Shown here: positions 2,429 to 42,139 of the stretch, piece by piece
Layout: every line of letters begins with the position of its first letter
Numbering within the stretch: the first letter of the stretch is position 1
Origin: Escherichia phage 235Ecol030PP
Sequence record: PP355091.1
Length of the DNA: 64,000 bases
Strand: one strand, 5' to 3'
Notes under the pieces: generated by a model
Told to the model about the DNA's origin: nothing
Database searches by the model: none
Seen by the model: only the letters and a program-made list of their open reading frames with translations
Program-made: the position numbers and the translations under genes

Positions 2429-2458
2429 ATTATACCACATCCTTGTGGTAAAGTAAAC
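2429..2458 (-). promoter_or_regulatory. T4-type early promoter (GTTTAC -35, TGnTATAAT -10)
   Basis: minus strand GTTTAC-18nt-TATAAT with TGG extension. Confidence 0.7.
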
Positions 2459-4278
2459 TACTGGCTCATCCATTCTTTACGAAGGTCAGCATTATCTCCC
2501 ATGAGCATTTCAAAAAGCTCTTTCCAGTTCTCAGGAAGTTTAACAACATCATATACTGGGTTTTGAATCATCTCACGATATTCAGATTTTTCCAAAGAGC
2601 CAAGTCCCTTAATATAACGGATGCTATGTTTAGGTAGAGTATCTTTGGCACTCTCATATTCAGCGACTGTATAAAACCATTCTTGTTTTTTACCGACCTG
2701 AGCGATGATTACAGGAGTTTTGACAAAGCGAATTCGTCCTTGCTCAAACAATTCTGGCCAATTACTAAAAAATCCGAGCAGAGAAGGATAAATGCTTCCT
2801 AGACCATCATGGTCAGCATCAGTCATAATAGCGATATTATGATAATTCAAGTTTTCAGCTTTTTCACCAAGAACTAGACCAGTTATTGCGCAAATATCAA
2901 ACAGTTCTTTGTTTTTAAGCATATCTGCATAAGACATACCCCAACTGTTGAGAACTTTACCACGTAATGGATAACCACCGTGAAGTTCTTTATCACGAAC
3001 ATCAATAAGATATCCGATAGCCGAATCACCCTCAGTCAAGAAAAGAGTAGTGTCAGCATCTTTACCACAAAGATTCGCTTTAATATGTTTATGAACCTTA
3101 GCTTTAGAAGCCTTTTTAGCCGCTTTAGTTTCTGCTGCTTTTTCTGCCGCCAATTTACGAGCTAATGCTGCTTCAATAATCGGCATTAAAATTGCTTCAT
3201 TATTTAGAATAGCACGTGAAATCTTTTTAGCATCAAGTTGAATATGACTACGGATTTCACCAAATGGAGAAGTCAAACGCTCTTTAGTTTGAGAATCAAA
3301 TCGCATGTTTTTCATATCACGAACAAACATAACGATAGTCAAACATTCTTTGACACGCGCTTTAGTTACATCAATTTTGAATTTACGTTTGATTTGTGGA
3401 ATAAGGTCTTCACAAATATCATCCATAACACAGTCAATGTGATGGCCACCATTCTTAGTGTGAATGTTATTCACATAAGTTAATTGACGAAAACCATCCG
3501 GTGAACGACCAACCGCAATAGAACAATTTTCTTGTTCTTGAACGATAGCATGTTCATCATACTGTCGTGCATATTTCTTAAAATTGCCCTGAACCTTTTT
3601 ACCATTAAAGGTAAATTGAATATCAGGATAAACTACTGCAAGTGTCTGGAGACGATCCAGTGTAATGTCAAGATAAACTTGGGACAGCTCATTAGTTTCA
3701 AATGACATAAAATCTGGAATGAAAGTAACACGAGTTCCTTTCCATTTTCCAGGAATAGTTTCCCAGGATTTATTTTCCATGCCATTTGAACAACGAACTA
3801 CAATATTATTTTGACCATCGCCAGTTTCACCAACAAACATCACAGAAAAAATGTTTGTCAAACTAGAACCAACACCATTCATACCGCCAGTGACGCGTTC
3901 TTTATCATCACCGAAGTTACCACCTGCTTTTGGAATAGTCCATGCAGCAACAGGACCAGGAATTTCTTCACCGGTAGGTGTTTTAACCATCGCCTGTGGA
4001 ATACCACGACCGTTATCTTCAACTGTTACTTGATTGTTTTTAATAGTAACATTAATTTTATTTGCGAATTTAAACTTAGTACGAATACCTTCATCTACTG
4101 AGTTATCGATAATTTCATCAATAAGCTTAACAAGACCAGGTACATACTGAACACTTTCCCATTTACCAAACAGAAAGCGCTCATGCATTTCATTAGCAGA
4201 AGAGCCAATGTACATGCCGCTACGCTTTTTGATATGTTCAATATCGCTCAGAATTTTAATTTCATTCTTAATCATCAC
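2458..4278 (-). CDS. 39: DNA topoisomerase II large subunit (GyrB-like ATPase + Toprim), unsplit 606 aa
   Basis: KRSGMYIGS ATPase N-terminus, GHKL motifs, Toprim LTEGDSA and DxD (TDADHDG); continuous ORF, no internal stop or bypass gap. Confidence 0.9.
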   Translation of the reverse strand: MMIKNEIKILSDIEHIKKRSGMYIGSSANEMHERFLFGKWESVQYVPGLVKLIDEIIDNSVDEGIRTKFKFANKINVTIKNNQVTVEDNGRGIPQAMVKTPTGEEIPGPVAAWTIPKAGGNFGDDKERVTGGMNGVGSSLTNIFSVMFVGETGDGQNNIVVRCSNGMENKSWETIPGKWKGTRVTFIPDFMSFETNELSQVYLDITLDRLQTLAVVYPDIQFTFNGKKVQGNFKKYARQYDEHAIVQEQENCSIAVGRSPDGFRQLTYVNNIHTKNGGHHIDCVMDDICEDLIPQIKRKFKIDVTKARVKECLTIVMFVRDMKNMRFDSQTKERLTSPFGEIRSHIQLDAKKISRAILNNEAILMPIIEAALARKLAAEKAAETKAAKKASKAKVHKHIKANLCGKDADTTLFLTEGDSAIGYLIDVRDKELHGGYPLRGKVLNSWGMSYADMLKNKELFDICAITGLVLGEKAENLNYHNIAIMTDADHDGLGSIYPSLLGFFSNWPELFEQGRIRFVKTPVIIAQVGKKQEWFYTVAEYESAKDTLPKHSIRYIKGLGSLEKSEYREMIQNPVYDVVKLPENWKELFEMLMGDNADLRKEWMSQ

Positions 4279-6166: not shown

Positions 6167-6706
6167 TTAATTCAAAATAGCTACCACTGCACTACGAGGT
6201 ACTACGCTAAAATCACCTGCATGAACAACGTTCAGAAGTTCAACACCATCTTCAATCCATTGGTCTGTTACCCAACCACAGACCGAAATAAATGGAGTCT
6301 TGATAGCTACCGCATGAGTTAGAAGGTCAGTAGGATCGCATTCTTGGAAGAGAATAAGCTCTGCTTCAAAGACTATAGTTTTAATTACTTCATCATTATC
6401 TAAGCGATGTGCTCGAATCACATAAGCTTTATTCTTATCATGCCAATTACTTTTTGAAAAACTTTTAACCACAAACTCGCCTTCACCAAAAACACTGGTC
6501 AATGCTTTATAACCCAAATTTAGTTCAGTAGTTTTAATTTCAGTTTCAACCAGTTTGTAGGTTTTGCCAATTTCAATAGCGGTAGTCATAGTAGGTTCCT
6601 TAATTTCCAGTGGTTTAACAGGGCATACATAAGTGCTTACAACATCAAAATCAATCAGTTTAGCTACCGGATTTGGTATGTATTCAGGATTATAATTAAA
6701 TTTCAT
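6167..6706 (-). CDS. hypothetical protein, 179 aa (paralog of 5593..6090)
   Basis: ORF; C-terminal block TDQWIEDGVELLNVVH shared with neighbour. Confidence 0.65.
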   Translation of the reverse strand: MKFNYNPEYIPNPVAKLIDFDVVSTYVCPVKPLEIKEPTMTTAIEIGKTYKLVETEIKTTELNLGYKALTSVFGEGEFVVKSFSKSNWHDKNKAYVIRAHRLDNDEVIKTIVFEAELILFQECDPTDLLTHAVAIKTPFISVCGWVTDQWIEDGVELLNVVHAGDFSVVPRSAVVAILN

Positions 6707-6708
6707 AA

Positions 6709-7209
6709 TTATCTCATTTCAATAAAATCTACGAGTTCAGCATGGGATTTACGGAACATTACTTGGTGCCCGCCAATGATAACTTCATCTTCAGGAACTT
6801 CGTATACAGCGAGATAAAATCCTTTAGAAGATAATTCTTCCCGCTCTTCTCGTGTGAACCATCTCATCATATCATATTCGCTAGCGAAAGCAAAATGATA
6901 AAGAGCTATAAACCATCCTGGAATATGATATTCTACTCCAACATAATCTTTCTTGAACTTAGTATTAATTACTATATTAGCGTTTTTAACTAATAGTTTA
7001 TCTTCGTGTGGTAAAGGAATTCTTTTATTATTATCGCTATGATGCATAAAATTAGGTCTGTCATAACCTACGTGTAATAACCACTCTTCACTCCATGAAT
7101 CTATTATACTTCTATATGGCGTTATTTGAACACAAAGATTTCGACGTATTGTTATAGCATCTTCATAATTAAGAATACTAAAAGATGATTCAACACGATA
7201 AATTTTCAT
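6709..7209 (-). CDS. hypothetical protein, ~166 aa
   Basis: start trimmed to ATG preceded by SD GAGGA; the longer track ORF runs into the upstream promoter. Confidence 0.55.
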   Translation of the reverse strand: MKIYRVESSFSILNYEDAITIRRNLCVQITPYRSIIDSWSEEWLLHVGYDRPNFMHHSDNNKRIPLPHEDKLLVKNANIVINTKFKKDYVGVEYHIPGWFIALYHFAFASEYDMMRWFTREEREELSSKGFYLAVYEVPEDEVIIGGHQVMFRKSHAELVDFIEMR

Positions 7210-7272: not shown

Positions 7273-7956
7273 TTATCGTTTTGTTGGAAGAGACAGAGGA
7301 TCGCACTCTTCCTCTGACGGAGCATCTTCAAGACCCATAGCGTATCGCAAAGCATACTTCATCATCAGGATGTCTTTCGCACAGTCATGAATAGAATTAT
7401 GCGCAACGAATCCATCTAAAGTTCCTTTTGGAAGAGGACATGTGGTCATATCACGAACAAGCAGAAGTGCTTCAATTCTGGTACGAATATCACGCTGATT
7501 CCAAAATTTACAAGGTTCTAACTTAAATGTATCAAGCTCATTCTCAGAAACACCATTAAGACGTTGAATATCGCGAATGAGATCGACTAAAATTGGAAAA
7601 TCAAACGACATTCCACGGCACCAGCCTTGAGATTTCCAAGGATCGATATTATGCGCATTGATGTAATCATTAAATTTTACAATACCATCGATAGTGCTTA
7701 CATCTTCATCTGATGGTGCAATATTTTTTCGAGCTTCAGGAGATTGGTTCTTCCACCATTCAATAGTGCTTTTAGTAAAAAGACGATGTCCTTTTTGGCT
7801 TTTTAAATCAAATTTGATTTTAATGCCACGTGAAACTAATTCATCGAATGTTTCAACGACTTCTGGATTAGGGTCAAAAGCAATTACAGCCAAATCAATA
7901 ACAGCTGCTTTTTCGCCGCTTCCCATTGTTTCAAAATCTATAATAAAATCAAACAT
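7273..7956 (-). CDS. dexA: exonuclease A (DnaQ-like DEDDh 3'-5' exonuclease), 227 aa
   Basis: Exo I motif IDFET near N-terminus, Exo III H-x4-D (HNSIHD); size and position match T-even dexA. Confidence 0.8.
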   Translation of the reverse strand: MFDFIIDFETMGSGEKAAVIDLAVIAFDPNPEVVETFDELVSRGIKIKFDLKSQKGHRLFTKSTIEWWKNQSPEARKNIAPSDEDVSTIDGIVKFNDYINAHNIDPWKSQGWCRGMSFDFPILVDLIRDIQRLNGVSENELDTFKLEPCKFWNQRDIRTRIEALLLVRDMTTCPLPKGTLDGFVAHNSIHDCAKDILMMKYALRYAMGLEDAPSEEECDPLSLPTKR

Positions 7957-14533: not shown

Positions 14534-14770
14534 TTAACCACCTATTGATGTAGGCGTAAACATTGCAGCATTCTTAGTTTTCCAAGTTGCTGCATCGGAA
14601 ACTACATCAGAATATGCTGCCTTTTCAGAAGGAAAGGTCTGATAATGAGAATCTGCAATACGATGCTCGTTAGAATAGATTTCAAATGGAACAGAAACTT
14701 CCATACCTTTAACTTCTTTGCCTTCACCCGCTGGATGAGTAAAGGTCTTGATGTTAACGAAACCACCCAT
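14534..14770 (-). CDS. soc: small outer capsid protein Soc (RB69-like variant), 78 aa
   Basis: MGGFVNIKTF...HYQTFPSEKAAY matches Soc family; late promoter TATAAATA upstream; terminator downstream. Confidence 0.8.
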   Translation of the reverse strand: MGGFVNIKTFTHPAGEGKEVKGMEVSVPFEIYSNEHRIADSHYQTFPSEKAAYSDVVSDAATWKTKNAAMFTPTSIGG

Positions 14771-14801
14771 AATAAACTCCTTTATTGTTTAATTACAGGT
14801 G

Positions 14802-14809
14802 TATTTATA
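14802..14809 (-). promoter_or_regulatory. late promoter (TATAAATA) for soc
   Basis: exact TATAAATA on minus strand ~35 nt upstream of soc ATG. Confidence 0.65.
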
Positions 14810-14951
14810 ACTTACAATTTAGCGGCTTTCCAGAGTTGTTCAATAATCTCTTGGTCTATTTCTTTAGTTATTTCATTACGTAATAAAGCAGTAAGGGCTT
14901 TCGCCCTTTTCTTATTCAACTTTTTGAGTTGGCGTTTATTTAAACGGGACA

Positions 14952-15470
14952 TTAATAACCTCGGTCTTGACGTGCGAAATTTTCAGCATTTTTCAGATAA
15001 TAAAGTTTAAAGATTTCTTCTGCTGTAAGACCAAGACCCTGGAACATATTCAGAACGAAATGAAGAATATCAATCATTTCGAATTTAATTTCCAACTGGT
15101 CTTGTGGAGACAAATCAGTAATCAGAGTTTCACGTCGTTCACCATGTTGTGCCTTCCACGGCTTCCATACACTGCTGGCGGCTTTTTCACCATTGCTCAT
15201 ACCACCAAGTGAAGTCAGCAGTTCACGGAATTCATCATCAATATAATCTTTCTGATTACGCAGCCAATCAACAACATCACCAGCAGTGGCCAATTCATCA
15301 GGATGTTTGTTATGTTTAGGCTTGTCATTTGCCAGACGAACCTGTAGAGATTTCTGCATGTCAAGCATTACCTGCAGCGGGTCTTTTTCATCACCGAGAA
15401 TATCCCAATATTCATTTTGAGCTTTATCAGCGCCTTCGATCAGATGACTACATTCGTTGAAATGTGGCAT
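14952..15470 (-). CDS. 56: dCTP pyrophosphatase (MazG-like), 172 aa
   Basis: size and position between soc and primase region; MazG-like helical fold assumed; recalled T4 gp56 ~171 aa. Confidence 0.7.
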   Translation of the reverse strand: MPHFNECSHLIEGADKAQNEYWDILGDEKDPLQVMLDMQKSLQVRLANDKPKHNKHPDELATAGDVVDWLRNQKDYIDDEFRELLTSLGGMSNGEKAASSVWKPWKAQHGERRETLITDLSPQDQLEIKFEMIDILHFVLNMFQGLGLTAEEIFKLYYLKNAENFARQDRGY

Positions 15471-15471
15471 G

Positions 15472-16122
15472 TTATTTTTCCTTTCTTATGAAGTTTTCTA
15501 TCATATGTCTATAGCAGATATTAGGATAACCTGCCTTGACAGCTATTTTATTAAATTTTGTGCGCTTAGGTCTATTATTATAAACCCACAACTCGTAAAG
15601 CGAATCATACGAATTCCATATCTCACCACGTCTTGGATTCGGTAAACCATATCGAGGTGAATTTTTACCGCTAAATCTTCCTTTTCGGGCTTTACTCATA
15701 TTAGCCTTGGCTTCATCGGATATAATTTTACCTTTATGAGCTAGACGCATTTTAGCCTTAGTTTCTTCAGGTGTTTTTAACCCCTTTATCCACGATGGTT
15801 TTCCAAACCTTGGATTATTTTCACCCGAGAAAAGAGCAGAGTTTTGGATTTTAAGAGTTTCTATTAATCTACTTGTTAATTTAACACCTTTATTATATCG
15901 CATTAAATTTACAGCATAATGCAATCCTCTCACATCTGGATATATTTTAGTTAATAATCTATGAGCTATAAAATGCTCACGCGCAGTTAACTCAACAAGA
16001 TTGTTTTTGCCATCTTCTCCTCCCATACATCTAGGAATTATATGATGGCGTTCTTTATATCCGCCAAGATTCCGGCATTTAGCTTTTGTAATTAAAGCCG
16101 AGTAAATTTTTTGGTAATTCAC
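15472..16122 (-). CDS. HNH (His-Me finger) homing endonuclease with NUMOD3-like repeats, 216 aa, GTG start
   Basis: motif ERHHIIP...N...EHFIAH; basic GK/KG repeats; C-terminal helix-turn-helix-like tail also seen in the other endonuclease ORFs in this window. Confidence 0.7.
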   Translation of the reverse strand: MNYQKIYSALITKAKCRNLGGYKERHHIIPRCMGGEDGKNNLVELTAREHFIAHRLLTKIYPDVRGLHYAVNLMRYNKGVKLTSRLIETLKIQNSALFSGENNPRFGKPSWIKGLKTPEETKAKMRLAHKGKIISDEAKANMSKARKGRFSGKNSPRYGLPNPRRGEIWNSYDSLYELWVYNNRPKRTKFNKIAVKAGYPNICYRHMIENFIRKEK

Positions 16123-16155
16123 ATATATCCTTTCAATTCATGGGTTAGTAGATTA

Positions 16156-16179
16156 ATTATACAATAAATATATAAAGCA
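16156..16179 (-). promoter_or_regulatory. MotA-box middle promoter candidate (TGCTTTA-11nt-TATAAT) upstream of the HNH gene and gene 56
   Basis: minus-strand TGCTTTA followed 11 nt later by TATAAT. Confidence 0.5.
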
Positions 16180-16192
16180 ATAAGGAGGATAT

Positions 16193-16393
16193 ATGGTACA
16201 AAAATTAATGGCACTTGTTAATGCCATCAAAGGTAATAAAAAGCGTATAGCTTTTACTATTTCTGCTATGGTAGGAATTTTACTCTGGAACTTTATTTTA
16301 TCACCTGTTGCTATTGCTCATGGCGTTAGTATTCCAGTAGTTACTCTTGATACATTCGTAGATTTAGCATTTGCTTTAGTTGGGTTAATTTAA
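16193..16393 (+). CDS. plus-strand small hydrophobic protein, 66 aa (putative 2-TM membrane peptide)
   Basis: strong SD AAGGAGG 4 nt before ATG; hydrophobic segments; lone plus-strand ORF in a minus-strand region. Confidence 0.4.
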   Translation: MVQKLMALVNAIKGNKKRIAFTISAMVGILLWNFILSPVAIAHGVSIPVVTLDTFVDLAFALVGLI

Positions 16394-17418
16394 ATCTTAG
16401 CATATTTAGATAGCCGCATTTTAGCCATTAACCCCTGGGCAATATTATTTTTCATATATTCCATAATTTGTTCAGGGGTTGCACCTTCCTTTCTAATCAT
16501 ATCATTAACATCTTTTGATTTCCAGGGAGATTTATCCCAAAACATAACCCTTTCTCCTGCATCAACTAATTTAGTCATTCGCTTAATAGTGTCAGGATGA
16601 CGAGGTTCATTATCTAAAACCCACACTCGTCTATCTTTAAATGGAACAACTTCTAGGTCTAATTGACCACCCGTAATAGCTATACCATTTTCAATAAAAA
16701 GTGAATCTATAGGTCCTTCTAGAACATATACATCGCCATCTTTAACTCGTTCGACTCCATAGATTTTTGTTGCTTCAGGATAAGCTTTGATGGTGATATA
16801 TTTTTGAGGAGCATCTTTCTTTAATGCACGTCCTTGAAAAGACTCAGCTTTTCCATTAGCATTATAAATTGGAATAACAAGACGAGGCTCAGAAATTTCC
16901 TTTTTATATGTTCCCGGTGCTATGCTATTAACCAATTTAGGCCATTCGGTTGTAAACCAAAGATATTTCCATTTATCCTTTGGAATACAACGAGCTTTTA
17001 CGTATTTTATAATTGGATGGTCTTCCGCCAATTTATCTAATCTAACGCATGACGGAAGAGATTTAATTATTTTCTTTTCAGGTTGTTTAGGAAGTTCTTT
17101 AGGTTTTTCTACTGGACGACTTTTACCTTTTTCTTTTCTTATTTCAAAGATATACTCACGATATAAATCAGGTTCAAACTCCTTTAAATATATTCCGATT
17201 GGTGCATGATAATTACAGTTATAACAATGAATATTTCCTTCATTATTATCACCATAATACCATCCACGGGCTTTATTTTGGTCGGTTTTTGAATCTCCAC
17301 ACACTGGGCATCTAAACCGTAATTTAAAAGTTGAACTATTATTTACTTGTGTGAATTTAGGTAAATGAGCTAATGCACGGTATGCAAACTCATTATCAAT
17401 CCAAGGTATTGATGACAT
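16390..17418 (-). CDS. 61: DNA primase (zinc ribbon + Toprim), 342 aa
   Basis: CPVCGD...CYNC zinc ribbon, Toprim acidic motifs; size matches gp61. Confidence 0.9.
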   Translation of the reverse strand: MSSIPWIDNEFAYRALAHLPKFTQVNNSSTFKLRFRCPVCGDSKTDQNKARGWYYGDNNEGNIHCYNCNYHAPIGIYLKEFEPDLYREYIFEIRKEKGKSRPVEKPKELPKQPEKKIIKSLPSCVRLDKLAEDHPIIKYVKARCIPKDKWKYLWFTTEWPKLVNSIAPGTYKKEISEPRLVIPIYNANGKAESFQGRALKKDAPQKYITIKAYPEATKIYGVERVKDGDVYVLEGPIDSLFIENGIAITGGQLDLEVVPFKDRRVWVLDNEPRHPDTIKRMTKLVDAGERVMFWDKSPWKSKDVNDMIRKEGATPEQIMEYMKNNIAQGLMAKMRLSKYAKI

Positions 17419-17583
17419 TTTTACTCTTCTTTTTCTTTAGATTCCTCTTTTTTCTTTTTAGGAATCTGTTCAGGACCTTTATTTACTACAGCGCCTGATG
17501 TTGTTCCAGTAGAGATATTTTCAGGACTACCACCTGAATCTCCAGCGACCATATCTTCTTTGATAAATTCTTTATATGTTTTC
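17419..17583 (-). CDS. small acidic/basic protein, 54 aa (position of T4 61.1)
   Basis: hand-translated ORF MKTYKEFIKEDM...; below track cutoff. Confidence 0.4.
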
Positions 17584-17586
17584 ATA

Positions 17587-18213
17587 TTAACCTCTATTCA
17601 TAAAAGCATTAAAAATTTGGTCATCAATAGAAACATTTGCTTTAGACTGTTTTTCGGATGGTAATTCATATCCACATATTACAATTTTATGATCAATATC
17701 AAAATACACAGAAGCAATATGATTAATGCTGTTTTCAGTAAAGTCTAAATCAACATCAATATCTTTTTGACCACAGCCCAAAGGATAAATAATGCGAGTA
17801 ATTCGATTATCTTTAACAAAGATTCCACCGACATACTCTGTGCTGCGTTTAAAGTCTACACGCCGACGAAATGAAAAATATTCAGGCTCTTTATGAGCTC
17901 GGCTCATAGGGCATAACGAATAACTAGAATAAGAGATGTCAAATCCTACGCCTTCAATATGAACTAAATTGTCATGATTAAACCAATTATAATCATATGC
18001 CAAGTCCATTAGATTGTCATATGTGAAAGGCACCGGATTAACATCATTGGTCACAAGCATATAATTAGCAACTGCTATAATTTCATTATTTTTAACGAAT
18101 ACAAACCGTGATTGATGCGAATGGCCTGGACCTGCGTTTTCACGATTAATGATATAACACTGGGCACCTTTATATTTGTATGTATCTTTGCACTTGTGCA
18201 TTTGATAAAGCAT
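17587..18213 (-). CDS. hypothetical protein, 208 aa (position of T4 61.2)
   Basis: ORF; its first 39 codons and 5' leader are duplicated in tandem upstream. Confidence 0.7.
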   Translation of the reverse strand: MLYQMHKCKDTYKYKGAQCYIINRENAGPGHSHQSRFVFVKNNEIIAVANYMLVTNDVNPVPFTYDNLMDLAYDYNWFNHDNLVHIEGVGFDISYSSYSLCPMSRAHKEPEYFSFRRRVDFKRSTEYVGGIFVKDNRITRIIYPLGCGQKDIDVDLDFTENSINHIASVYFDIDHKIVICGYELPSEKQSKANVSIDDQIFNAFMNRG

Positions 18214-18377
18214 TATTCACCTACCACTTCAGCGATCGAATACAAACCGTGATTGATGCGAATGGCCTGGACCTGCGTTTTCACGATTAATGATATAACA
18301 CTGGGCACCTTTATATTTGTATGTATCTTTGCACTTGTGCATTTGATAAAGCATTATTCACCTACCACTTCAGCGAT
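18096..18377. repeat. perfect tandem direct repeat, 2 x 141 bp (18096-18236 and 18237-18377)
   Basis: the two copies are identical base-for-base on inspection. Confidence 0.95.
18238..18354 (-). pseudogene. truncated duplicate of the 5' end of the 208-aa gene (41-codon reading frame)
   Basis: inside repeat copy 2; ATG overlaps the stop of the spackle-like gene; frame closes after 41 codons at the repeat junction. Confidence 0.6.
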
Positions 18378-18708: not shown

Positions 18709-18966
18709 TTATTTTAAAACTTTTGCGTAATCACATGTTACAAACTGTTTCTCTAGCTTAACGATCTTACGAAAATACCTTTTACACTGACGAATCTGCC
18801 GCTTCGTAGGACGTACAACAAACTTAATAAATTCCACTCGACCAGATGGAGGACTTTCTTCTGGTGGAATATCTAGCACCAATTCCCACGTATCTGCAAT
18901 AAGTGCTTTGAATTGAGTATTTTTCCTGACGTTATACGGAGTAGGTTTAAATAAAACAATATGCAT
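18709..18966 (-). CDS. hypothetical basic protein, 85 aa (position of T4 61.4)
   Basis: ORF; positional assignment only. Confidence 0.55.
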   Translation of the reverse strand: MHIVLFKPTPYNVRKNTQFKALIADTWELVLDIPPEESPPSGRVEFIKFVVRPTKRQIRQCKRYFRKIVKLEKQFVTCDYAKVLK

Positions 18967-18967
18967 A

Positions 18968-19150
18968 TTATCCTCGGCAATCTACTTCACATACTTTCTT
19001 GTCATCAATGAAAGCTTTAACTAATGCTTTATTAACTTCAGCATACTGAGTAGTAGCCCATTGAACGTCATCTTTCATCATTGTGATTTCTTTAGTAAAC
19101 ATGCTTTCATTCTTAAACCACCCCATAAAAACTACCTTTACCAATTCCAT
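18968..19150 (-). CDS. dmd: small protein, 60 aa (position and size of T4 Dmd antitoxin)
   Basis: 60-aa ORF immediately downstream of an early promoter and upstream of the 61.x cluster. Confidence 0.55.
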   Translation of the reverse strand: MELVKVVFMGWFKNESMFTKEITMMKDDVQWATTQYAEVNKALVKAFIDDKKVCEVDCRG

Positions 19151-19178: not shown

Positions 19179-19208
19179 ACTATACCATAGTCTTGTCAGC
19201 TTGTAAAC
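19179..19208 (-). promoter_or_regulatory. T4-type early promoter upstream of the 60-aa dmd-position gene
   Basis: GTTTAC-18nt-TATAGT with TGG. Confidence 0.65.
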
Positions 19209-20635
19209 TAAAATTTTAATTCATTTGCCAAAGCATCTAACTGAGCTCGAGTCGATTCATTTCTTTGATAGCGATTCTGTTCAGCTTGTATCTGTTGTGA
19301 ACCTGCTACTTCATTCACTTCAGTTGGAGTAGAATCTTGTTCAATTTCTACCCATTTCTGATTTCCTTTTTGAACACCCATCAAAAACTTATTCCACTTA
19401 TTCTTATCACCATATCGTGATTTGATTTGCTTAATGAGTTGTTGTTCAGCAGCTGCTAGCTCCTCGGTTTCAATGACCGCAAGCATAAAATCAGCTGTTG
19501 CTGGAAGACCAGCAGATTCTGCAATATCGCTCATGTTAACATCGGAAGAGTCCCAAGCTTGTTTACCAACCTGTGCTGCAGTCCAAAGAACAGTTTCGGT
19601 TTCAACAGCCAGAGCACGCAATTCCTCTGCAATAGCTTTAACAGTTGTGTAACTATTTTCTGAATAAACTCTAATGCGGCAAGATTTACAAATACCTAGA
19701 TAGTCGACAATAATGATTGTTGGAACAAAATTCTTCTTGAGCTTCAATTCGTTTAAAAGTGATCGAAATGTATTAGCGTCTGCTCCACCAGTAGGATACT
19801 GTTTAACGATTAAACGACCAAGAGTAGATTTCTCACGCCATTTTTCCATTTTTCCTTTATACTCAGCGTAAGAAATATGCCCATCATCAATGTCATCAAG
19901 AGAAACATCAAGCATATTAGCATCAATACGCTTAGCGCAAACTTCTTCAGCCATTTCCATGGAAATGTAAAGAACATTATGTCCGAGCTGTAAATAATCT
20001 GCTGCCAATGAACACAATCCTAATGACTTACCAACGTTAACACCAGCCATTAAAACGTTCAGTGTTCCAGTCTCAGCTCCGCCTTTAGTAATTTTGTTCA
20101 GAATTCTGAGTTTAAATGGAACCTTACGAGCTTTATTCATATAAGATAACCAACGTGCTTCGTAGTCATCCATCCAATCATGACCAACATAGCTATCAAA
20201 TGAAATTGATAATGCCTGGCGCATGATGTCAGGAATAGCACCAACATCCGGCATTTTCTTATTTCGTTTTTCCGGAGGAAGTTCAGCATTGGTTTGAATT
20301 TCGATTATTTTAGACGTAGCATTAAACATCGCCCTTTGCTGAACATATTTTTCTGTTTCTTTTATTAACCAGCTGTGGTCTTCCGGAGAATCAGCTAGTT
20401 TTGAAATAAGTGTTTTTACACCAGAATATTCTGTTTCAGTAAATGAACTATTTTCTAATGCAACATTTAACGCATTAATAGATGGAACGCTATGATACTC
20501 ATTAACATGAGATTTAATTAATTTGAATGTATTTTTAGCTGGACCACTTTCAAAATATTCTGAATCCATATATGGCCAAACTTTTGAAAAATAAGCTTGA
20601 TCAAATATGAGATGAGAAAGAATAATTTCTACCAC
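19208..20635 (-). CDS. 41: replicative DNA helicase (DnaB-like), 475 aa
   Basis: Walker A GVNVGKS, RecA-like core; size matches gp41. Confidence 0.9.
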   Translation of the reverse strand: MVEIILSHLIFDQAYFSKVWPYMDSEYFESGPAKNTFKLIKSHVNEYHSVPSINALNVALENSSFTETEYSGVKTLISKLADSPEDHSWLIKETEKYVQQRAMFNATSKIIEIQTNAELPPEKRNKKMPDVGAIPDIMRQALSISFDSYVGHDWMDDYEARWLSYMNKARKVPFKLRILNKITKGGAETGTLNVLMAGVNVGKSLGLCSLAADYLQLGHNVLYISMEMAEEVCAKRIDANMLDVSLDDIDDGHISYAEYKGKMEKWREKSTLGRLIVKQYPTGGADANTFRSLLNELKLKKNFVPTIIIVDYLGICKSCRIRVYSENSYTTVKAIAEELRALAVETETVLWTAAQVGKQAWDSSDVNMSDIAESAGLPATADFMLAVIETEELAAAEQQLIKQIKSRYGDKNKWNKFLMGVQKGNQKWVEIEQDSTPTEVNEVAGSQQIQAEQNRYQRNESTRAQLDALANELKF

Positions 20636-40839: not shown

Positions 40840-41310
40840 TTAATCATGTTTCCACACCCCATCGGTATTTGACCAAAGTCGCTGATTATCTGATCCTCGC
40901 CACAGCTTTTTAGTCGGAAGATTTTTCTCATACTTCCCATCAATAATAACATCAACATATTTAAGCATTTCTAGTTGTTTAATATCTTCAAACTTATATC
41001 CTGTCCACAACCAAATGCTTTTATTTGGATAAAGATTTTTTACTGTTTGAACAATGCAATGAATAACATCTCGATTATCAGGATAGAGAGGGTCACCTCC
41101 GGTTATAGTCAATCCTTCTATATAATCATTATTCAAACATTCAATTAATTGTTCTAGTGTTTCACCAGTGAATGGAATACCATTTCTAGCATTCCATGTT
41201 GATTTATTATAACACCCTTCGCATTTATGCAAACAACCTGTAACGAAAAGAACTGTCCTGCATCCAGGGCCATTCACAAAGCAGCACGGGTATATTCTGT
41301 CATAATTCAT
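40840..41310 (-). CDS. nrdG: anaerobic RNR activating protein (radical SAM), 156 aa
   Basis: CxxxCxxC cluster (CLHKCEGCYN), size 156 aa. Confidence 0.85.
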   Translation of the reverse strand: MNYDRIYPCCFVNGPGCRTVLFVTGCLHKCEGCYNKSTWNARNGIPFTGETLEQLIECLNNDYIEGLTITGGDPLYPDNRDVIHCIVQTVKNLYPNKSIWLWTGYKFEDIKQLEMLKYVDVIIDGKYEKNLPTKKLWRGSDNQRLWSNTDGVWKHD

Positions 41311-42139
41311 TTATATATTTCCAATTATAGCCTTCAACACTTTTACGTTCGCCATTTAAACATTTTAAAATATTTCCTTTGCTAGAAATATTAAAATATT
41401 TTGCTGCGTCTGGTATATAATTAAATGTTTTTAAAAGAACACCATCTTTATATGCGCCAAATAAATTAAGAGTATATTTTTCTCGAAGACGTTGATGTTT
41501 CCTTTTCATAACCTCAGGATTTGCATACGCCAACCTCAATGAATTTCTATGTTTTTCTTTTACTTCAGGTTTTTGCATTGCTAACTTAGTTAGCCTGGAA
41601 ATTTTATTTCTAACTTCGTCAGTTTTCATTGCATTTGACAAATTTAATAAAGTTTTATTTCTAACTTCAGGTTTTTGCATTGCTAACTTAGTTAGTTCTC
41701 TATGTCTTTTTCTAAAATCGTCATCCTTCCATATATTTTTCGATAATTTTGACATAGAGCGGTGAAATAATTCCTTTTCACCGGAATACAATTTAAGAAT
41801 TTCATCCAATTCATCTGTATTAAATCTATCGGTATTCGAGTTTATCATTCTATGAAAGGCATAACACATTTTACTATTACTTGTTTTAGCTAAATAGTAA
41901 TGAGCTAACGCGTGGTCATAATATGACAAATTAACAATATTCCATTTATCTGTTTTATATTCAGGAAATATAGATTTGGGAAGCACGTGATGTGCTTCCG
42001 TTTTTCCTTTTATTTTAGGATTATTATAATTTTTTGTTATCAAATCAACATATGACAATAGTAAATCATTATTTTCTTCAAATATTAAAGATAATTTATC
42101 ATTCACAAAATCGCAAGGATAAAATCTATCATAATTCAT
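41300..42139 (-). CDS. HNH homing endonuclease (Mob-like), 279 aa, with NUMOD3 repeats
   Basis: AHHVLP...N...DHALAH HNH motif; duplicated LTKLAMQKPEV units; first 13 codons mimic the nrdG N-terminus. Confidence 0.75.
   Translation of the reverse strand: MNYDRFYPCDFVNDKLSLIFEENNDLLLSYVDLITKNYNNPKIKGKTEAHHVLPKSIFPEYKTDKWNIVNLSYYDHALAHYYLAKTSNSKMCYAFHRMINSNTDRFNTDELDEILKLYSGEKELFHRSMSKLSKNIWKDDDFRKRHRELTKLAMQKPEVRNKTLLNLSNAMKTDEVRNKISRLTKLAMQKPEVKEKHRNSLRLAYANPEVMKRKHQRLREKYTLNLFGAYKDGVLLKTFNYIPDAAKYFNISSKGNILKCLNGERKSVEGYNWKYINEL
41566..41700. repeat. direct repeat of ~27 nt within the HNH gene (NUMOD3 repeat units)
   Basis: aggtttttgcattgctaacttagttag occurs twice about 103 nt apart. Confidence 0.8.

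Follow-up and report, generated by a model that had tools for sequence, protein, structure and literature searches.

A perfect 141-bp tandem duplication at the sp-adfA junction of a Tequatrovirus genome record is very probably an assembly artefact

Does a perfect tandem duplication that straddles two neighbouring genes of a T4-like phage record reflect an event in the phage or an event in the making of the record? The question is raised by a locus in the window, i.e., the whole 64-kb (64,000-nucleotide) stretch of DNA analysed here, which constitutes the left end of a T4-like (Tequatrovirus) genome. The present analysis indicates that the duplication is, in all likelihood, the untrimmed end overlap of a circular short-read assembly that was internalised by rotation, and not biology.

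By direct string comparison, positions 18096-18236 and 18237-18377, 141 bp each, are the same base for base. Tandem Repeats Finder described 18096-18377 as a repeat with a period of 141, 2.0 copies, 100% matches, 0 indels and a score of 564, and a separate repeat search returned the same two 141-bp copies at 100% identity. The perfect tandem noticed in the preliminary description was thus recovered in three ways. When the window was searched for exact repeats of at least 30 nt, only the 141-bp tandem and a 32-nt stretch near 41562 were found. The 141-bp repeat cannot be chance, since it is the sole exact repeat of this size in the window besides that 32-nt stretch; it is a singular feature with no repeat-rich background. 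A tandem repeat with a 51-bp unit, imperfect at 66% matches over 2.7 copies, lies at 41562-41695 inside an open reading frame (ORF) at 41300-42139 on the minus strand. There, the repeat encodes reiterated 17-residue '...LTKLAMQKPEV(R/K)...' motifs in a 279-aa product with the appearance of a homing endonuclease of the HNH/NUMOD type, where they probably represent a common kind of repeated DNA-binding motif.

The minus-strand gene order around the 141-bp repeat is the same as in T4 (Table 1), and the PHROGs assignments agree with those of Pfam for the genes of the locus. The two genes that meet at the repeat had been called spackle-like and 61.2-like from their sequence, and the full-length Pfam matches identify them as sp and gene 61.2. 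Gene 61.2 has been reported as adfA, the anti-DarTG1 factor, and gene 61.4 as tifA, the ToxN inhibitor. Together with the neighbouring tifA and dmd, adfA forms an anti-defence block, in agreement with the accessory anti-defence role that the preliminary description gave for the 61.x genes.

Table 1. Genes, repeat copies and copy-copy junction at the sp-adfA locus (window positions)
Feature	Position	Strand	Content and basis
Gene 41, helicase	19208-20635	-	T4 order
dmd	18968-19150	-	T4 order; Pfam Dmd, full-length
61.4/tifA	18709-18966	-	T4 order
sp (spackle, 61.3), intact, 97 aa	18354-18647	-	Pfam PF25676 T4_Spackle 1.6e-44, full-length; phrog_1586
Repeat copy B (upstream in gene orientation)	18237-18377	-	True last 24 nt of sp and 118-nt adfA 5' fragment forming the truncated ORF
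41-codon ORF, MLYQ...RFVFDR	18229-18354	-	Made by the duplication; AdfA residues 1-39 followed by Asp-Arg, stop TGA
Blunt novel junction CAGCGAT/CGAATAC	18231-18242		Between 18236 and 18237; repeat extension 0 left, 0 right
Repeat copy A (downstream in gene orientation)	18096-18236	-	24-nt remnant of the sp 3' end (IAEVVGE and stop) and first 118 nt of intact 61.2/adfA
Gene 61.2 = adfA (anti-DarT factor A), intact, 208 aa	17587-18213	-	Pfam PF23813 AdfA 1.1e-136, full-length; T4 annotation
61.1	17421-17585	-	T4 order
Gene 61, primase	16390-17418	-	T4 order

The repeat unit comprises 24 nt of sp (seven sense codons and the stop) and 118 nt of 61.2 (39 codons and one further nucleotide); the sp stop and the 61.2 start share one base (TAATG). 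The preliminary description had given the stop, the overlapping ATG and the 39 codons of the 208-aa gene correctly, but its eight codons of sp are in fact seven sense codons and the stop. On the coding strand, sp (ending NIIAEVVGE-TAA) is followed by the 41-codon ORF, the 24-nt remnant of the sp tail and the intact adfA, in this order. Both sp and 61.2 are left whole by the duplication, as would be so for any tandem duplication, and the 41-codon ORF is its only new product. This truncated frame, which had been attributed to the upstream copy, was found as expected, reading from 18354 to 18229, and its start is the native TAATG overlap with sp.

The adjoining 208-aa gene encodes a full-length member of the AdfA (T4 gp61.2) family, and its product covers positions 1-211 of the Pfam profile. 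In contrast, the 41-aa product carries AdfA residues 1-39 and two foreign residues, and nothing suggests its functional membership. Its Pfam AdfA match (residues 1-39, 5.8e-16) covers positions 1-42 of the 211 in the profile and is not full-length. In exact look-ups, the 41-aa product corresponded to no gene on record, and the 208-aa AdfA allele was likewise without a match.

Inside the 141-bp unit there is no complete gene. A consensus scan of the unit detected neither a promoter nor a terminator on the coding strand, and promoter-like sites as a whole occurred at the frequency expected by chance; a duplicated promoter or terminator was therefore rejected. In the closest relative, the annotated early promoter precedes sp and falls outside the unit. 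There is no gene-dosage reason for selection of the unit, because it is devoid of a complete gene, a coding-strand promoter and a terminator.

The flanks of the repeat read TTTTTAA/CGAATAC and CAGCGAT/GATATTT, where the slash marks the boundary. The base preceding copy A is A where the last base of the unit is T, and the base following copy B is G where the first base of the unit is C. Since the flanking bases differ from the unit ends on both sides, the microhomology at the repeat boundaries is 0 nt at either end. A microhomology-mediated origin was accordingly rejected, the repeat extension being 0 nt on both sides. Where the two copies meet, they form CGATCG, a 6-bp palindrome and PvuI site, which is incidental.

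How could an assembly give rise to such a structure? T4-like genomes are circularly permuted, and a de Bruijn assembler would return such a genome as a 'circular' contig in which the first k bases equal the last k. Under MEGAHIT defaults the final k is 141, and the end overlap would be 141 bp long. If the contig were then cut and its two pieces swapped, such that the sequence starts where the T4 reference does, upstream of rIIA, and if the overlap were left untrimmed, the old contig ends would be joined head-to-tail. The outcome would be a perfect internal two-copy tandem at an arbitrary place, here the sp/adfA junction. This scheme presumes an assembly of the record at k=141, by MEGAHIT or another program, and no reads across the junction.

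The record itself bears the marks of such handling. Base 1 of the window aligns to base 1 of T4 NC_000866, and the first 70 nt are the same. A circularly permuted genome assembles with its break at an arbitrary point; as the window begins at T4 base 1, the record was re-oriented, and the original contig ends must be joined inside. Furthermore, the period of the repeat, exactly 141, is the final k-mer length of MEGAHIT. In its default k-list the last k is 141. The published parameters of this assembler give a k range of 21-141. The k-mer end overlaps of circular contigs (MEGAHIT k=141; SPAdes k=127/77/55) share with the present repeat the two identical copies, the blunt ends, the arbitrary position and the re-oriented record, and in length the repeat equals the MEGAHIT final k. 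In both cases, the removal of one copy restores the normal sequence.

Similar cases are on record. A published assembly from a default MEGAHIT run contained a 141-bp insert that exactly matched the adjacent region and was without read support; it is identical in kind to the repeat described here, and it was the one clear case of an explicit MEGAHIT 141-bp overlap found in the literature. SPAdes circular phage contigs have been shown to keep a 127-bp overlap equal to the k-mer (PMC7372960), and SPAdes assemblies also yield artefactual direct terminal repeats (DTRs). The Sphae pipeline couples MEGAHIT assembly with subsequent re-orientation as a routine for phage isolates. The link between the length of 141 and MEGAHIT, which we infer, draws on the default k of the program, a single published case and the precise match in number.

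Public contigs of phiX174 (5,386 bp) display the same behaviour of end overlaps. Contigs of 5441 (5386+55) and 5513 (5386+127) have exact terminal overlaps of 55 and 127 bp, and other contigs in the sample have overlaps of 77 bp. None of the sampled phiX contigs, which are SPAdes-type with k = 55, 77 or 127, had a 141-bp terminal overlap. A single phiX-like contig is present in IMG/VR. Many stretches assigned to one metagenome record, FUFK010037421.1 (327,964 bp), consist of phiX174 repeated head-to-tail at intervals of exactly 5,386 bp, in one stretch with three copies. Their apparent source is a spike-in or control DNA that was assembled or stored as concatemers.

The comparison with related T-even genomes, which had been proposed for deciding whether a single copy is ancestral, gave a uniform result. 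All of the phage records that matched the region (630/630) spanned about 972-973 bp of the 1114-bp query, i.e., the query minus 141, in two overlapping pieces, and are therefore single-copy. A junction-centred 50-mer, searched by megablast such that every 28-nt seed must cross the junction, had no match in 50,697 phage records. The exact 26-nt junction was also absent from IMG/VR, from GTDB genomes (one per species) and from JGI/ENA metagenome contigs, and six IMG/VR loci with full-length AdfA relatives, close as well as distant, carried no repeat at the site. When one copy was removed, a gapless 240/240 alignment across both breakpoints was obtained to T4, fPS-2 and IMG/VR relatives. The single copy is the ancestral and universal state. 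The closest genomes were compared at 96-98% identity, with no same-strain single-copy comparator among them, and the genome itself does not occur among the 50,697 phage records. A real tandem duplication would likewise keep both flanking genes intact and would likewise be unique to one isolate, which is a point against the artefact explanation.

A genuine duplication deserves the most attention among the alternatives. It would have arisen very recently and spontaneously by illegitimate (homology-independent) recombination or replication slippage, would have been fixed neutrally through a single-plaque bottleneck, and would face inevitable collapse through homologous recombination. In principle, junctions that lack homology can result from illegitimate recombination of the T4 topoisomerase type. 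The zero divergence between the 141-bp copies fits a recent event. Besides, the change would be tolerated: both genes are intact, and the downstream adfA retains the 24 nt that natively precede it, with GGTGA ahead of its ATG. Tandem duplications and amplifications form readily in T4, and the adjacent dmd-tifA locus is one of the sites. The present repeat resembles the T4 dmd-tifA amplification and other T4 tandem duplications (rII, genes 16-18/Hp17) in phage group and in its head-to-tail arrangement, and it lies within ~350 bp of the tifA gene.

The resemblance, however, does not extend to the structure of the units. The T4 dmd-tifA amplifications occur at microhomologies of 6-10 bp, of which one copy is left at each junction, and other T4 duplications and deletions at microhomologies of 2-10 bp; here, the microhomology is 0. 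Moreover, the T4 amplifications comprise whole genes and usually a promoter and are present in many dosage-selected copies with compensating deletions, whereas the present repeat is blunt, is without a whole gene or a promoter and has exactly two copies. A random event would arrive at the assembler default of 141 with a chance of ~1 in several hundred. The duplication occurs in no other isolate or metagenome (630 records, four collections), and the start at T4 base 1 is an independent sign that the record was rotated after assembly. Hence, we consider a genuine recent duplication unlikely.

In its most specific form, this alternative would have a real homology-independent duplication of 141 bp caught just after arising in a wild Tequatrovirus, inside the adfA-sp-tifA-dmd counter-defence cluster, and making a translated 41-residue N-terminal AdfA peptide; such a course of events seems improbable to us. 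If true, it would show in a natural phage the initial step of duplication/amplification dynamics known so far only from T4 laboratory evolution, by a mechanism other than the microhomology route. Even a real repeat would amount to no more than a modest natural case of T4-type duplication in a counter-defence region.

The repeat could also have been selected for a function. In that case, the 41-aa N-terminal AdfA fragment or an altered sp-adfA translational coupling would tune counter-defence against DarTG-type systems, or the repeat would be the residue of a collapsed adfA/sp amplification. The locus is indeed an anti-defence cluster (adfA, tifA, dmd), and the fragment ORF, which starts at the native overlap with sp, would probably be translated. 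However, no whole gene or promoter is duplicated, nothing similar occurs in any relative, and the zero divergence between the copies gives no sign of maintenance over time. From a collapsed amplification one would expect either a single copy or units flanked by microhomology instead of a 141-bp unit with blunt ends, and every argument for an artefact counts against selection too. Selection is thus a most improbable source of the repeat.

A laboratory engineering or cloning scar, e.g., a restriction-ligation join at the PvuI site, merits hardly any credence: the palindromic junction is the one point in its favour, but five 6-mers span any junction and each is palindromic with a chance of 1/64, such that ~8% of random junctions form one, no vector or foreign sequence is present, and the phage is a mosaic natural Tequatrovirus. 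An origin from a restriction site was therefore rejected, CGATCG being a chance palindrome in a natural isolate.

Returning to the end overlap of a circular assembly, this explanation is favoured by a length equal to the MEGAHIT k-max, by the blunt junction and the rotated record, by the absence of the repeat from 630 relatives and by a unit that includes neither a whole gene nor a promoter. The preliminary description had offered a very recent event, selection, or an assembly or engineering artefact as the possible origins. Assembly has emerged as the favoured one, selection is without support, and engineering is unlikely because a natural isolate about 96-98% identical to T4 is not laboratory T4. 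The remark in that description on the instability of exact repeats in T-even phages holds, but it does not discriminate, as a 141-bp repeat could persist through plaque purification.

It is therefore very probable that the phage itself has no such repeat, and its record is likely to exceed the true length by 141 bp. While the biological significance is small, the practical point is one of data hygiene. Specifically, gene callers will annotate the spurious 41-codon ORF as a truncated AdfA-like or hypothetical protein in a well-studied anti-defence cluster. The same features provide a reusable screen for errors in phage databases, namely two perfect blunt copies, a length equal to an assembler k (141, 127, 99, 77, 55) and a genome rotated to a reference start.

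Apart from the repeat, the genome is about 96-98.5% identical to its nearest relatives (fPS-2, fPS-90, T4 and others) and shows mosaic differences from T4. The phage is a natural Tequatrovirus isolate and not a laboratory T4 derivative. In T4, gene 39 and gene 60 are split by mobA, and a 50-nt translational bypass is present. The window encodes an uninterrupted 606-aa topoisomerase II large subunit at 2458-4278 on the minus strand (Pfam HATPase_c, DNA_gyraseB, TOPRIM_C), and T4 positions 2794-3910 have no counterpart in it. Since the large subunit is uninterrupted and this T4 segment is without a counterpart, the phage lacks the gene 60 bypass arrangement. A short segment at 6279-6734 is without an alignment to T4 7331-7686 (motB.1 region), as is typical of the accessory-gene mosaicism among T-even phages. 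Similarly, 14540-16182 does not align to T4 15337-17725 (segF, 56, dam), and no segF-sized gene adjoins soc in the window. About where T4 has dam, an ORF at 15472-16122 on the minus strand encodes a homing endonuclease-like product of 216 aa with a NUMOD3 motif; its neighbours are the dCTPase homologue of gene 56 (14952-15470) on one side and the primase on the other. At the equivalent place, fPS-2 carries an annotated homing endonuclease.
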